From Escherichia coli (lineage in GTDB: Bacteria; Pseudomonadota; Gammaproteobacteria; Enterobacterales; Enterobacteriaceae): DNA of 64,000 nt. The stretch lies in NCBI RefSeq assembly GCF_001677475.2, contig NZ_CP015229.1; one strand, written 5' to 3'. Shown one piece after another: positions 37,101-46,100 of the stretch. The stretch's first letter is position 1. The number at the start of each line of letters is the position of its first letter. A program made the position numbers.

Positions 37101-40100
37101 CAGACGGAATCCCCTGCTGTTATCGCGGGAATGGAAGTCAGCGCTTTAAGCAGTAGTGGATGCCATTTCTCTGAAATGGGCAGAACTTTGCCAGGTGCAA
37201 CCCCGCACAGTTCATCGTCCGGTACGTCATCCAGCAGCGGGCGCAATAAAACATACGCCATCGCTTCCGGGATAGGCACCACATGTAACAATCCCTGACC
37301 CGATAACATATCAGAGAGCGCCGTCCAGCCTTGAAACGTGCGGAACACCGAACATTTTGTAGTGTTATCTACCGTGTACTCTTCGACATCGGTCCGGTGT
37401 GCAGCATCCCAGGGATCGTAATCATCGAAATTACCATTAAACACATTGGCAAAAACGCGCTGATAAGCGGGTAATAACCACCGTTCCAGCGCACCAGAAT
37501 CGGTATGCGCGCCCAGGCCTTTAGATGTAGTACCTGGAGGGCGGCGGCGGATCCTGTCTGGATAAATCACACTGATATCAGGATTAAACCACTGTTTGCC
37601 GTTGCTTTCAGACGTCCACAGTCGGTTTAGAAAAGATTGCACAGCAGCCATGTTTTCGCTCTGCCGCGCCTGCATCTGTGCTTGCGACCAGTAAATGGGA
37701 TAGATTTCGGGACGAGAAGCCTCCAGCGAGCCGAAAAAACTGTCGCCAGGGCCTTTATAAACATCATCAAAATGATTGATATCAAGATAATCGAGCATGG
37801 CACGATCCCACGCCATCGCCAGCTCGCGAGGGAAATGGCCTTTTATGACTGCACAGCCGCGACGTTTAATTTCATTGCGAGTGGCATCGCTTACTGTACC
37901 TGCGGCAATATCACTATAAGAAACTTCCGGCCAAACCGGCAGCCCTTGCGCTTTTAGGGCATCGATTTCAGCAACACGCGTTTCGATTTTTGCAGAGAGT
38001 GTATCGAAAACCTGTTGCACATCACCGAGCTGTTCTCGCAGCACAGCTTTCATCTCTCGGATAGCCGCTTTCGCATCTGTGGGCAGCGTCTCACAGGAAA
38101 AAGTCATATCAACCTCGCCTCTTTCATTCGAAATTAAAATGATTACGATTGATACATTAAGTTAAAAATAAGTTAACGCAAGATAAAAATCTTGAGTCAG
38201 TGCACAAAGCGAGCAAAAAGGAGAGAGGCCGAAGTGGTCACTTCGGCCAGGGGGAAGATCAACTATTGAAAGGAGCGATATTATCCAGCACCGCCTGAAT
38301 CACATTCAGCGCGCCTTCATGATTATTATCATCGGTAGCGTAACGGGCGATTTGTTTAATGTTTTCCGCAGCATTGCCCATCGCAAAGGAATAACGCGCC
38401 ATTTTCAGCATCTCCGCATCGTTACCGCTGTCGCCAATCGCTACCACATTTTGCGGTGACAGATCCCAGCGTTTCAGTAACCGCGAAATACCGTTTGCTT
38501 TATGTAGACCGGGAATAATCAGGTCGATAAAGCCAAAACCACTGGTAACGGGTTTCATAATGCCATCCAGCGCTATGTGCAGTTTGTCGATCACTAACGG
38601 GATTTGTTCATCCGGCAGGTTGAGCGAAAACTTGAACAGTACGTCGTCAATCTCCTGATAATCTTTTACAGGTTTCAGGCGATGGTAGTGTTTTGCCATC
38701 AGTGCGACGAATGCTTCGGGGGCGTTTTCGCTGACATATGCACTTTGCAGACCGCAGGCGACAAAATTGAGTTGCTTATCTTTTAGCAACTCGCCAATAA
38801 CAATCCGCGATTCATGTCGGGTCAGTTCGCCGTGGAACAACTGCTTGCCATGTTCGTAAACCAGTGCGCCGTTTTCCGCGACAAAAGAGATCTCATCCTT
38901 TAGCTCAGGAAAGAACGAAATAAGCTGGTAATACTGATTACCGCTGGCGACAACGAACTTAATGCCGCGCTTTTTCAGTTCCTGATATTGCGCCATAAAA
39001 CGTGGTTGGTTGTACGTTTTGGCGTCGTTAAGAAAAGTACCGTCCATGTCTGTGACGATAACTTTTACGCTCATAGGTGTGCTCCTGGCTCGAAAATGAA
39101 ACCGTAACAGTGTAATAACAATGTGACGCAGAGCACAAATTATATTTCGAATGAAAGTAAGGATGAAATTGATGATGTGAATGATTTAGCCCGGCGACGC
39201 CGCCGCCGGGCTGAGGAGATTACAGCATATGTTCAGTACGGGCGATGATATCGTCCTGTGCGTCTGGAGAGAGCGCGGTGAAGAAGGCGGAATAGCCCGC
39301 GACACGCACTACCAGATCGCGGTACTGATCCGGATGTTTTTTCGCTTCCAGCAGCGTTTCGCGGGAAACGATGTTGTACTGAATATGCCAGCCTTTATGC
39401 ACCTCGAAGAAGGTGCGCAGCAGGATCATCAGTTTCTGCTTGTCAGATTCGTTCTCCAGTGTTGCTGGATTCAGTTTCTGGTTGAGCAACACGCCGCCGA
39501 GAATCGCTGCCGTAGGCAGTTTACCCACCGAGCCAATGACCGCAGTAGGGCCAAGATGATCAGTACCGGAAGCCGGGCTTGCGCCTTCTGCCAGCGGGGT
39601 GTGGGCTTTACGCCCGTCCGGTGTTGCCATAGTCTGCGCGCCAAACGGTACGTTAGCGGAGATAGACGACGTACCCGCGTAATAGTTGCCGCCAACCGGA
39701 CCACGACCGTAGCGCGGATTATGGTACTGTTTCAGTTCGTCGATATAGGTCTGATAAGCGCGAGCCAGCAGCGTATCGACGGTATCATCGTCGTTGCCGT
39801 ACTTCGGCGCACCGTTAATCAGCCGCTGACGCAGCTGCTCGTGCGTCAGACCATCGAAGTCATCCGCCAGTGCGGCAGCCAGCTGTTGCTGACCAATCGC
39901 GCCCTGTTCAAATACCAGTTTCTTCACTGCCGCCAGGCTGTTGCCGAGGTTGGCAATGCCGACCTGCAGGCCAGAAACCCAGTCATATTTCGCGCCGCCT
40001 TGCTTGATACTTTTCGCTCGCTCAATGCAGTCATCCACCAGCGCCGAGCAGAGAATATCGTGTACGTTCTCTTCCAGCATGGTGTCGACGACATATTCAA

Positions 40101-43100: not shown

Positions 43101-46100
43101 GGGTGGTAGCGGCATTCAGACTGTGACCGACTTACACCAGTTATTGAAAATGCATGCGCCGCAGGCGAAAGTGCTGGCAGCGAGTTTCAAAACCCCGCGT
43201 CAGGCACTGGACTGCTTACTGGCAGGATGTGAATCAATCACGCTGCCACTGGATGTGGCACAACAGATGATTAGCTATCCGGCGGTGGATGCCGCTGTGG
43301 CGAAGTTTGAGCAGGACTGGCAGGGAGCGTTTGACAGAACGTCGATTTAACCGGACGTTCTGCATCCTCATAAATTGCTGATGACGTGGCGGAGTGCCGC
43401 GTCTTATCAGGCCTGGAGGTGGCAATTACTGCCCGCACACTTCACACCCCGGATTGCGCATCAGTTTCATTTCACGAAACTGGCAGGTCATCGCATCGTA
43501 CATGACGATTTTCCCGCTGGCTGGTTTGCCATAACCTGCCAGCAGTTTGATTGCTTCCATTGCCTGCAACGAACCAATTACGCCGATTAACGGTGCCATC
43601 ACGCCTGCTTCTACGCAGGTTAACGCGTTCTCGCCAAACAAACGGCTAAGGCAGCGATAGCACGGTTCGTCGTCCTGATAAGTGAAGACAGTGATTTGCC
43701 CTTCCATACGAATTGCCGCGCCGGAAACCAGCGGCACCTTCGCGGCAAAACAGCCTGCGTTCAGTTGATTACGTACCGCAACGTTATCCGTACAGTCGAG
43801 CACCAGATCGTGTTTTGCAATCATCGCAGCAAGTTCAGCGTCATCCAGCAGCGCATTGACTGGCGTAATCGCGATATGTGGGTTGATCCGCGTCAGGGCG
43901 TCACGGGCGGATTCCACCTTCGGTTGCCCGACCGTGGCATCACTGTGCAGCGTCTGGCGTTGCAGATTCGAGAGCGAAACCGAGTCGAAGTCGAGCAGCG
44001 TCAGGTTGCCGACACCGGCGCTTGCCAGATACTGCGAAGCTGCGCAGCCGAGTCCACCGAGGCCGACGATCAGCACACGAGAATCTTTTAGCGCCTCCTG
44101 ACCGTCAAAATCAAAACCGCGCAGAATGATTTGCCGGTTGTAGCGCAGCATCTCCTGATCGCTGAGTTCCGCCATTACCGGCCTCCGAACAACGCGTTAA
44201 ACGGTTCTACTTCCACCCATTCGCCCACTTCCACATTGCCGCGATCGCGTTCCAGCACGATAAAGCAGTTGCCGAGACTAAATGAGCTAAATATATGTGA
44301 ACCCTGATGTCCGGTGGTCGTCACTTCAAGTTCGCCGTCGGCGTTGCGTTGCAGCACGCCGCGCTGGAAATCAAGCCGACCTGGCGTTTTCTTCAGGCGG
44401 GACGCTGTGCGTACGCGCTGGCGCTCGGGCAGGCCGCTGGCGGTGTTGCCGCTTAGTTTTGCCAGCAAAGGCTGTACCAGTTGATAGAAGGTCAACGTCG
44501 CTGAAACCGGGTTGCCCGGCAGGCCGCAGAACCAACTATTAGAAAGTTTTCCGAACGCGAACGGTTTACCCGGTTTAATCGCCAGCTTCCAGAAGGCGAT
44601 CTCCCCCAGCTCTTCAAGAATGGTTTTGGTGTAATCCGCTTCACCCACTGAAACACCGCCGGAACTGATCACCACATCCGCCTGGCTGTCGGCTTCAATA
44701 AATGCGGCGCGCAGGTCATGGGGATCGTCGCGGATAATCCCTAAGTTGATTACCTCGCATCCCAACTGTTCTAACATCAGGTGTACGGCGAGACGGTTGG
44801 TATCGTAGATTTGGCCGTCGCCCAGCGGCTGACCGGGCAACTGGAGTTCATCACCGGTAGAAAAAAGCGCTACACGCACTTTACGAATCACCGGAACTTC
44901 GGCAATCCCCAGTGAAGCAATCACTGGCAGTTCAGCGGTAGTCAGGCGAGTCCCCGCCGGGAAAACAACCGCACCTGCAGAGATATCTTCACCGCGACGG
45001 CGAATATTTTGCCCGCTACGCACTTCAGCAGTAAAACGCACGCCATTGTCAGTTTGTTCAGTCTGCTCCTGCATCACCACCGCTTCGCAGCCTTCCGGCA
45101 CCGGCGCACCGGTCATAATACGAATGCAGGTACCCGCAGGCCATTCACCATGGTACGGCTGACCGGCAAAGGATTTACCGGCAACGGGCAGCGGTTGCCC
45201 GGAGGCAATATCGGCTAAACGCACCGCGTAGCCGTCCATAGCGGAGTTATCAAACCCCGGAACATCAAGCGGCGAAACGACATCGCTCGCCAGAATACGA
45301 CCAAAACACTGAACCAGTGGCAGCGTTTCCTGGGCGGTCAGTGGGGTAACGCGAGAAAGCATCTCATTAAGCGCGGTGTCGAGCGACATCAATCCGGTGG
45401 TAAATTCCATGAAAACACTCCTGCGGAGGCAAAATCGAATTTGCCTATTATGTCAGAAAAACGCCACAGACTGTATGCCACCTCGGGCGTAGCGCTGGGT
45501 CCTGCCTTTACATGCCATATCCATCTTTCTATATTCAAAAATTGAATGAGTAATTCATAAAAATTCTGATATTTATAGCAAAAGTGGCGAGCCACCCTTA
45601 ATGGACGAATACTATGGGCAAAGCAGTCATTGCAATTCATGGTGGCGCAGGTGCAATTAGCCGCGCGCAGATGAGTCTGCAACAGGAATTACGCTACATC
45701 GAGGCGTTGTCTGCCATTGTTGAAACCGGGCAGAAAATGCTGGAAGCGGGTGAAAGTGCGCTGGATGTGGTGACGGAAGCGGTGCGTCTGCTGGAAGAGT
45801 GTCCACTGTTTAACGCCGGAATTGGCGCTGTCTTTACGCGTGATGAAACCCATGAACTGGACGCCTGTGTGATGGATGGTAACACCCTGAAAGCCGGTGC
45901 GGTGGCGGGCGTTAGTCATCTGCGTAATCCGGTTCTTGCCGCCCGGCTGGTGATGGAGCAAAGCCCGCATGTGATGATGATTGGCGAAGGGGCAGAAAAT
46001 TTTGCGTTTGCTCATGGCATGGAGCGCGTCTCGCCGGAGATTTTCTCCACGCCTTTGCGTTATGAACAACTACTGGCAGCGCGCGAGGAAGGGGCAACAG

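Follow-up and report, generated by a model that had tools for sequence, protein, structure and literature searches.

The ybiYW and fsaA genes of Escherichia coli as a likely anhydroglycolysis module with proposed control by FNR and YciT

The window analysed here, a stretch of 64,000 nucleotides of Escherichia coli DNA, very likely carries the E. coli 'anhydroglycolysis' module, ybiYW together with fsaA, which we propose to be under the control of FNR and YciT. The reaction of YbiW is already known, its substrate and products having been published in 2024 together with crystal structures, and what the present analysis adds to the known pathway is the regulatory layout. An earlier note on this DNA had described ybiY and ybiW as an orphan pair whose substrate was not firmly established. 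This view is outdated, as shown by Ma et al. 2024, cited in a passage of the review PMC12441222, and by the PDB entries 8id7, 8yjn and 8yjo. The note had itself named a defined YbiW substrate and pathway in the literature as what would contradict it, and such literature exists. A literature text search for 'anhydroglycolysis' found nothing beyond this review.

The locus and its enzymes

ybiW (39220-41652, minus strand, 810 aa) encodes a glycyl radical enzyme of the eliminase/dehydratase type, and ybiY (41658-42557, minus strand, 299 aa from the RefSeq-type start) lies 5 nt upstream on the same strand and encodes its radical-SAM activase, an arrangement that the earlier note had read correctly. 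The gene of fructose-6-phosphate aldolase 1, fsaA (42688-43350, plus strand, 220 aa), is divergent from the pair. ybiV (38259-39074, minus strand), for a Cof-type HAD-IIB sugar phosphatase, and ybiU (36848-38107, minus strand), for a DUF1479/Gig2-like protein, lie downstream of ybiW. The position of fsaA and the HAD phosphatase gene beside the pair had also been noticed before, and the end of the range given then, 43350, is exactly the fsaA stop codon. ybiW, ybiY, fsaA and ybiV are all intact. Of 5426 complete E. coli genomes, 5425 contain the 4.1-kb stretch, at 95-98% identity (maximum to any of them, 98.0%), and no Rfam family was found within 39220-43350. Immediately 3' of the ybiW stop codon is a GC-rich hairpin (39188-39212, minus strand; -22.5 kcal/mol, z-score -4.9), which lacks a T-run and thus may act as a weak terminator or stabilise the RNA.

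The same order of genes, ybiT-ybiU-ybiV-ybiW-ybiY/fsaA-moeB, is found in K-12, where YbiW, YbiY and FsaA (b0823-b0825) are 98-99% identical to the window proteins and the DNA is ~97% identical. YbiW, YbiY and FsaA differ by 7, 5 and 6 substitutions, respectively, none of those in YbiW falling in the Gly or Cys loops, and the catalytic motifs, the FNR box and the ybiY/fsaA operator are identical. Near-identity and conserved synteny thus make the window YbiW the orthologue of b0823. Conservation within Enterobacterales is very high, with 86-93% amino-acid identity. The structures 8id7 and 8yjn are ~99% identical to the window protein, so the fold is solved; 8id7, deposited as 'Probable dehydratase YbiW', differs at ~10 of 810 aligned positions.

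YbiW combines a PFL-like barrel domain (PF02901, E 2.5e-208) with a Gly_radical domain (PF01228, E 1.7e-32), and its glycyl loop RVAGYSAFF, reported earlier as intact, spans residues 783-791 with Gly786 as the radical glycine. The Cys loop AAIGCIETAV holds Cys441, followed at +2 by Glu443 (G-C-x-E). All the hallmarks of a glycyl radical enzyme are therefore present, namely the RVxG[FWY] motif, the Cys-loop cysteine and an adjacent CX3CX2C activase, and a score of 1406.5 bits against TIGR01774 (cutoff 678.2) assigns YbiW to the PFL2/glycerol dehydratase subfamily. In the comparison with characterised glycyl radical enzymes that had been proposed, GC441IE443 and His165 of YbiW align with the motifs of propanediol dehydratase.

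YbiY (TIGR02494, 368 bits, cutoff 174) has its CX3CX2C motif at Cys25/29/32 and auxiliary-cluster cysteines at Cys51/55/58 and Cys91/92/100. Its open reading frame extends over 41658-42584 from the first ATG, and we favour the RefSeq-type start (MIFNIQRY) because a GAGAGG Shine-Dalgarno sequence lies 5 nt upstream of that ATG. FsaA scores 449.7 bits against NF009296 (cutoff 306) as a class I fructose-6-phosphate aldolase, and its active site is intact (Schiff-base Lys85, Gln59, Thr109 and Tyr131). FSA takes hydroxyacetone as a donor, and in 2020 its physiological role was still called 'enigmatic' (PMC7767278). The products of ybiYW carry only generic names in RefSeq and NCBIfam (June 2026).

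The 1,5-anhydroglucitol pathway and its alternatives

1,5-anhydroglucitol is a sugar analogue found in the diet and in blood, which the enzyme pair reportedly enables gut bacteria to degrade anaerobically. According to Ma et al. (J Am Chem Soc 2024, 146:26187; doi 10.1021/jacs.4c07718), whose work is summarised in section 5.1 of PMC12441222, YbiW converts 1,5-anhydroglucitol-6-phosphate to 1-deoxyfructose-6-phosphate by ring opening, PflD makes the same product from 1,5-anhydromannitol-6-phosphate, and these cleavages enable E. coli to grow anaerobically on 1,5-anhydroglucitol. For the substrate we rely on this citation at second hand and on the molecule names in the PDB ('Probable dehydratase YbiW'). 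The gene neighbourhood had led the earlier note to suspect an anaerobic sugar-derivative pathway that includes fsaA, and this guess was right.

We then propose the following sequence of events. 1,5-anhydroglucitol would be taken up and phosphorylated to the 6-phosphate by a PTS, and YbiY, through its [4Fe-4S] cluster and SAM, would place a stable radical on Gly786 of YbiW. At every turnover the radical would move from Gly786 to Cys441, whose thiyl radical may take the hydrogen from C2 of the substrate while Glu443 deprotonates the C2 hydroxyl, roles that we infer from other eliminases. The ketyl radical would then expel the ring oxygen from C1 in a spin-centre-shift elimination with an ether oxygen as leaving group, and Cys441 would give the hydrogen back to yield open-chain 1-deoxyfructose-6-phosphate. 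FsaA would split this into glyceraldehyde-3-phosphate, which enters glycolysis, and hydroxyacetone, and GldA, encoded elsewhere, would reduce the latter to 1,2-propanediol. The 2024 work of Ma and colleagues is said to have reported both the splitting of 1-deoxyfructose-6-phosphate by FsaA and the reduction of the resulting hydroxyacetone by GldA, and reportedly also gave FSA aldolase a physiological role.

A paralogous system is the K-12 pflD locus (gldA-fsaB-ptsA/frwCB-pflD-pflC-frwD), which likewise groups a glycyl radical enzyme, an activase and an FSA. In PflD (PDB 8yjo) as in YbiW, the glycyl loop reads RVAGYSAFF and the Cys loop GC(V/I)E, and the paralogues are 39.6% (YbiW/PflD), 38.5% (YbiY/PflC) and 69% (FsaA/FsaB) identical. 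The PflD substrate is the C2 epimer of that of YbiW, with the same product reported (PMC12441222, in the passage cited). The pflD locus has its own PTS components and gldA, whereas the ybiW locus has neither, and no PTS gene adjoins the ybiYW cluster in E. coli.

To compare the locus with its orthologues, we used seven loci from an exact-protein look-up, in seven other genera. fsa is divergent from ybiY-ybiW in six of them (Yersinia, Pantoea, Brenneria, Mixta, Yokenella and Enterobacillus), and in four of these six the cluster adjoins a gene of the DeoR family with 58-65% identity to YciT; in Kosakonia sacchari there is no fsa beside ybiY. Aldehyde-processing or microcompartment genes were absent from all eight loci examined.

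One alternative accepts the reported chemistry but denies that 1,5-anhydroglucitol is the chief natural substrate. In this view the module would mostly handle the phosphate of a different anhydro- or deoxy-hexitol, or would detoxify 1,5-anhydroglucitol-6-phosphate that the glucose PTS makes by accident, and would not primarily support growth. We consider it very unlikely. The absence of a dedicated transporter beside the E. coli cluster and the phosphatase gene ybiV in the same regulon would suit it, as would the very low expression of FSA under laboratory conditions (PMC7767278). However, E. coli is reported to grow anaerobically on 1,5-anhydroglucitol (PMC12441222, in the passage cited), and the very high conservation within Enterobacterales points to a specific function under selection.

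An assignment of YbiW to the small-diol dehydratases, with glycerol or 1,2-propanediol as substrate, is extremely unlikely. Its top PDB matches besides YbiW itself are indeed glycerol dehydratase 1r8w (E 8e-164) and propanediol (diol) dehydratase 5i2a (E 1e-150), members of the same TIGR01774 eliminase subclass that have the Cys-x-Glu motif and the active-site His in common with YbiW and presumably also the ketyl-radical (spin-centre-shift) elimination of a beta C-O bond. But YbiW would act on a phosphorylated cyclic polyol from which the ring ether oxygen leaves, so that the outcome is ring opening and not dehydration. The gene context also differs, since the aldehyde-processing and microcompartment genes are missing at every locus examined and the conserved partners are an FSA aldolase and a sugar-phosphate-type DeoR regulator, and the literature assigns YbiW a C6 sugar phosphate (PMC12441222, as cited above). 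We give virtually no credence to YbiW as a pyruvate or 2-ketobutyrate formate-lyase with YbiY as PFL activase, a reading kept alive by the name 'putative pyruvate formate lyase / formate C-acetyltransferase' in K-12 and many database records and by the shared PFL fold and glycyl loop, and effectively refuted by the single cysteine followed by Glu in G-C441-I-E where PFL has Cys-Cys, by a score against the PFL equivalog TIGR01255 (161.9 bits) far below its cutoff (994.2), and by much weaker matches to PFL structures (E 4e-44) than to glycerol dehydratase. What PflB/PflA (1h16) and YbiW/YbiY have in common is the ten-stranded barrel family, the C-terminal glycyl radical domain and radical-SAM activation; PflB uses a Cys-Cys dyad to cleave a C-C bond, and its activase is without the extra Cys-rich insert of YbiY.

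The ybiY/fsaA promoter

The region between ybiY and fsaA contains three elements. The predicted -10 hexamer of ybiY, TTTAAT (42583-42588, minus strand), has an xxTAAT core conserved in 9 sequences from 8 genera and would place the transcription start near 42576. An FNR box, TTGATGTGCGTCAA (42611-42624), matches 9 of 10 bases of the consensus TTGAT-N4-ATCAA and is centred ~41.5 nt upstream of this predicted start, a position that depends on the predicted -10 element. Between the two sits a 16-bp palindromic operator, ACTTTCATTCGAAAGT (42591-42606). In the same 9 sequences the operator core CTTTCnTTCGAAA is invariant, the distance between FNR box and operator is fixed at 4 nt, and the FNR half-sites are conserved around a variable 4-nt spacer, with a degenerate box in Kosakonia (TCGAT-N4-ATCAC). 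A generic promoter scan (3 sites against 6.2 expected) gave a sole match near ybiY that overlaps the start codon, and we did not trust it.

The FNR pattern alone occurs 6 times in the window against 2.5 expected, which is not significant, and the weight of the ybiY box comes from its position, its conservation and published ChIP data. Myers et al. 2013 list an FNR ChIP-seq peak 'ybiY/fsaA' with the identical site (Tables S5, S6 and S9), and saw no FNR-dependent change in expression in glucose medium. Our literature search found no main text that mentions ybiY together with FNR; the evidence lies in supplementary tables. The ybiY promoter has been published as anaerobically active, and YciT was recovered with it by DNA pull-down.

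These observations are consistent with a promoter that would need two inputs for transcription of ybiYW, FNR bound at about -41.5 when oxygen is absent and the release of YciT, which would leave its operator upon binding an effector, presumably a pathway sugar-phosphate. The silence of FNR in the glucose medium of Myers et al. fits repression by YciT, and the layout of FNR box and YciT operator would explain why FNR binding looked "silent". It would also identify the activator left unnamed in a 2026 preprint as FNR.

The YciT regulon and its meaning

The window holds the 16-bp palindrome three times, where 0.52 copies would be expected, and we regard it as the probable operator of YciT, a repressor of the DeoR type. 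The second copy, ACTTTCATTCGAAATA (39143-39158), overlaps the TATAAT of a separate ybiV promoter, and a copy occupies this position in K-12, Kosakonia and Yokenella as well. The third, TCTTTCATTCGAAATT (38120-38135), lies 13 nt upstream of the ybiU start codon, and copies upstream of ybiU are also found in K-12, Pantoea, Mixta, Kosakonia and Yokenella. No copy was found near yciT itself in K-12. YciT ChIP-exo peaks and derepression in a yciT deletion have been published for ybiY, fsaA and ybiV. We place ybiV and ybiU in the same regulon as ybiYW, and their promoters have their own operators and no FNR box.

The ybiU of the window is a rare, highly divergent allele with 74.5% nucleotide identity to K-12 ybiU. 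A Pfam search of YbiU at E values up to 10 returned only Gig2-like, the literature gave no function for DUF1479/Gig2, and an AlphaFold model from a 6-sequence alignment had a mean pLDDT of 37. YbiU contains an invariant His201-x-Asp203 ... His338/343, a pattern as in Fe(II)/2-oxoglutarate oxygenases. It is tempting to speculate, from sequence features and as an unlikely reading, that the YciT regulon comprises two anhydrohexitol routes split by oxygen, YbiYW with FsaA on one side and a putative oxygen-compatible YbiU with YbiV on the other. As an example of the latter, YbiU might hydroxylate C1 of 1,5-anhydroglucitol(-6-phosphate) to give glucose(-6-phosphate). If this were true, the two deeply diverged E. 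coli ybiU alleles could reflect differing substrate preferences.

Public annotation lags behind the known pathway, as ybiYW are still treated as functionless both in RefSeq and NCBIfam (June 2026) and in a preprint of 2026, and a note to curators is therefore warranted. Because the pathway metabolites are known, YbiU, YbiV and the effector of YciT are now easily testable. Together, the FNR ChIP-seq of 2013, the YciT ChIP-exo of 2021 and the reporter footprints of 2025-26 all fit one conserved promoter layout.

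Gene content and conservation of the ybiW-ybiY-fsaA locus

ORF listing and translation place ybiW (810 aa; 39220-41652) and ybiY (299 aa; 41658-42557) on the minus strand and fsaA (220 aa; 42688-43350) on the plus strand. An alternative upstream ATG at 42584, which lies inside the promoter and lacks a Shine-Dalgarno sequence, would extend YbiY to 308 aa. YbiW contains PFL-like and Gly_radical domains and scores 1406 bits with TIGR01774 (cutoff 678), YbiY scores 368 bits with TIGR02494 (cutoff 174), FsaA scores 450 bits with NF009296 (cutoff 306), and the family models assign YbiV to the Cof-type HAD-IIB hydrolases. 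The RVAGYSAFF loop spans YbiW residues 783-791, with Gly786 as the radical glycine, and the cysteine loop reads GC441IE443. YbiY carries a C25-X3-C29-X2-C32 motif and two more cysteine groups, and FsaA retains Lys85, Gln59, Thr109 and Tyr131. The observation in the earlier note is borne out in every detail.

Megablast found the 4.1-kb stretch, labelled ybiW, ybiY and fsa, in 5425 of 5426 complete E. coli genomes, and the region is completely syntenic with K-12 (ybiT-ybiU-ybiV-ybiW-ybiY/fsaA-moeB-moeA). Relative to K-12, YbiW has seven substitutions (A61T, E184K, M246I, T306I, H474R, T506M and D769E), YbiY five and FsaA six, with none in the catalytic motifs; Arg474 also occurs in a crystallised close homologue, 6xs4. 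Across Enterobacterales, YbiW orthologues are unusually conserved (86-93% amino-acid identity). For three large parts of the window, the top identity to any of the 5426 complete genomes is just 97.7-98.7%, with gene order as in K-12. Thus, the window's lineage has no close representative in the complete E. coli genomes, and the window appears to come from the chromosome of a divergent Escherichia lineage.

Substrate, pathway and probable catalytic mechanism of YbiW

The ybiY-ybiW pair had previously been called orphan. This status is outdated, since the substrate and product of YbiW are published and structures have been deposited in the PDB. According to the summary of Ma et al. 2024 in section 5.1 of PMC12441222, 1,5-anhydroglucitol and 1,5-anhydromannitol are phosphorylated by a PTS, and YbiW and PflD produce 1-deoxyfructose-6-phosphate from the respective 6-phosphates by glycyl-radical, oxygen-sensitive cleavage, thereby enabling E. 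coli and many gut bacteria to grow anaerobically on 1,5-anhydroglucitol. PDB entries 8id7 and 8yjn ("Probable dehydratase YbiW") differ from the window YbiW at ~10 of the 810 aligned residues, with three of the changes resembling engineered surface alanines; the PflD structure is 8yjo. The ybiW-ybiY-fsaA genes are already known as a core, well-conserved E. coli operon with characterised biochemistry and structure.

FsaA or FsaB reportedly splits 1-deoxyfructose-6-phosphate into glyceraldehyde-3-phosphate and hydroxyacetone, and the latter is said to be converted to 1,2-propanediol via GldA. These steps are consistent with a 2020 paper in which FSA accepts hydroxyacetone as donor and its physiological role is called "enigmatic", and with the clustering of gldA, fsaB, pflD and pflC at the paralogous K-12 locus (4137932-4147479; gldA-fsaB-ptsA / frwC-frwB-pflD-pflC-frwD). 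Whereas FsaB, GldA and the PTS components ptsA/frwCBD cluster at the K-12 pflD-pflC locus, the ybiW locus contains neither PTS genes nor gldA. Therefore, uptake and hydroxyacetone reduction must come from elsewhere. A weaker explanation is that the main natural substrate is something other than 1,5-anhydroglucitol, or that the module serves chiefly to detoxify 1,5-anhydroglucitol-6-phosphate formed by accident. We favor the published use of 1,5-anhydroglucitol for growth.

In alignment, the Cys-x-Glu loop and His165 of YbiW coincide with catalytic residues of glycyl-radical propanediol dehydratase. Among structures with a named function, those of glycerol dehydratase (E 8e-164) and diol dehydratase (E 1e-150) come closest to YbiW, with PFL at just 4e-44. 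Unlike PFL, YbiW has no Cys-Cys pair, and its 162 bits with the PFL equivalog model fall below the cutoff of 994. Motif, model score and context led us to reject both a PFL-type and a small-diol-dehydratase function. By analogy with the eliminase subclass, the most likely chemistry is hydrogen abstraction at C2 followed by C1-O5 elimination. The radical would pass from Gly786 to Cys441, and the resulting thiyl radical would take hydrogen from the substrate C2. A ketyl radical would form with the assistance of Glu443, loss of the C1-O5 ether bond would give a C1 radical, and Cys441 would return the hydrogen. Since C2 would become a ketone, the gluco and manno epimers would yield one product, in agreement with the shared product reported for YbiW and PflD.

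Proposed regulation of the cluster by FNR and YciT

Pattern search with up to two mismatches detected three copies of the 16-bp palindrome ACTTTCATTCGAAAGT, a probable YciT operator, in the 64-kb window versus 0.52 expected. All three fall exactly in promoter regions of the cluster: between ybiY and fsaA (42591-42606), upstream of ybiV (39143-39158, overlapping TATAAT) and upstream of ybiU (38120-38135). In 125 kb of orthologous loci, all matches but one lie in equivalent promoter regions. The alignment of nine ybiY upstream sequences from eight genera (mean identity 63%) reveals a conserved layout of a TTGAY-N4-RTCAA box, a fixed 4-nt gap, the palindrome and a TTTAAT-like -10 element. The half-sites of the box are conserved and its spacer varies freely in these sequences; the boxes of Brenneria and Enterobacillus match the FNR consensus perfectly, and that of Kosakonia (TCGAT-N4-ATCAC) is degenerate. 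Given the inferred -10 element, the box centre (42617.5) lies ~41.5 nt upstream of the predicted ybiY start. This geometry would be that of a class II FNR promoter, with the operator spanning roughly -30 to -15 from the predicted start.

Both elements are supported by published binding data. Myers et al. 2013 reported an FNR ChIP-seq peak "ybiY/fsaA" with the identical site TTGATGTGCGTCAA (PWM score 14.54), classed as FNR-bound without FNR-dependent expression change in glucose medium, other regulators being unknown (PMC3688515). In Gao et al. 2021, YciT gave ChIP-exo peaks at ybiY, fsaA and ybiV, and expression differed in a yciT deletion (PMC8464067). In a 2025-26 preprint, which nowhere mentions FNR, the ybiY promoter was active only anaerobically, YciT was pulled down, and an unidentified activator left a footprint ~15 nt upstream of the YciT site. 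The centre-to-centre distance of 16.5 nt between the FNR box and the palindrome matches this footprint. The simplest reading is that the ybiY promoter needs both FNR, in the absence of oxygen, and release of YciT when substrate is present. Our guess, from what is typical of the family, is that the YciT effector would be a pathway sugar-phosphate.

We compared seven orthologous loci from other genera. The fsa gene is divergent from ybiY-ybiW in Yersinia, Pantoea, Brenneria, Mixta, Yokenella and Enterobacillus, but not in Kosakonia sacchari. A DeoR-family gene adjoins the cluster in Yersinia, Pantoea, Brenneria and Mixta, and the three of these four proteins that were compared share 58-65% identity with E. 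coli YciT. These findings indicate that YciT, unlinked in E. coli, is the cluster's own regulator.

The neighboring genes ybiU and ybiV and the state of annotation

Both ybiU (36848-38107) and ybiV (38259-39074) have their own putative YciT operator copies without an FNR box. A sigma-70 peak with higher aerobic occupancy lies at the ybiV promoter (Myers et al. Table S2; PMC3688515). Elsewhere, ybiU adjoins the cluster in Pantoea, Mixta, Kosakonia and Yokenella, and ybiV in Kosakonia and Yokenella. YbiU is a DUF1479 protein with an invariant H201-T-D203 ... H338/H343 pattern, and its solved structures carry no assigned function. The literature searched describes no role for ybiU or ybiV in the anhydroglucitol pathway.

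A sharply bounded 1.5-kb segment covering ybiU, the ybiU-ybiV spacer and the ybiV 3' end (36800-38300) is ~55-86% identical to K-12, with flanks of 96-100% on both sides. The encoded YbiU is 84% identical to K-12 YbiU and, nearly as closely, 82% to that of Kosakonia or Yokenella, and the allele occurs at ≥95% identity in just ~219 of ~5480 E. coli records. Its sharp divergence and rarity suggest that E. coli harbours two ybiU alleles that diverged deeply, imported or kept as an old polymorphism.

Directly beside ybiU, Kosakonia (L007, 14085-19140) and Yokenella (L010, 10783-14433) encode a LacI-family regulator, an MFS sugar transporter and a GH31 glycoside hydrolase, and a LacI-family gene is next to ybiU in at least one E. 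coli genome (H14); a link of these genes to anhydro-sugar supply is possible. The ybiT-ybiU spacer (36610-36850) contains a REP-type repeat matching Rfam ES036 (36691-36733), recurs at ~40 places per E. coli genome and, in some strains (H6, H11 and H12), carries an IS621 insertion next to ybiU. Another REP-type repeat (16786-16856) matches Rfam naRNA4.

In RefSeq, YbiW is still called "glycyl radical protein"; NCBIfam release 20 (June 2026) contains no YbiW equivalog model, and according to a preprint of May 2026, ybiYW "has had no functional annotation". None of the three yet reflects the functional assignment of 2024. A 1047-aa database protein (P0011) joins YbiW (99% identity) to HAD-phosphatase domains; ybiW and ybiV were probably joined here by a frameshift or in assembly, and the fusion is unlikely to be genuine. 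The remaining value of the ybiYW locus lies in this annotation lag, in the integrated FNR/YciT promoter model, and in YbiU and YbiV, two regulon members that are still uncharacterised, together with the unusual ybiU allele of the window.
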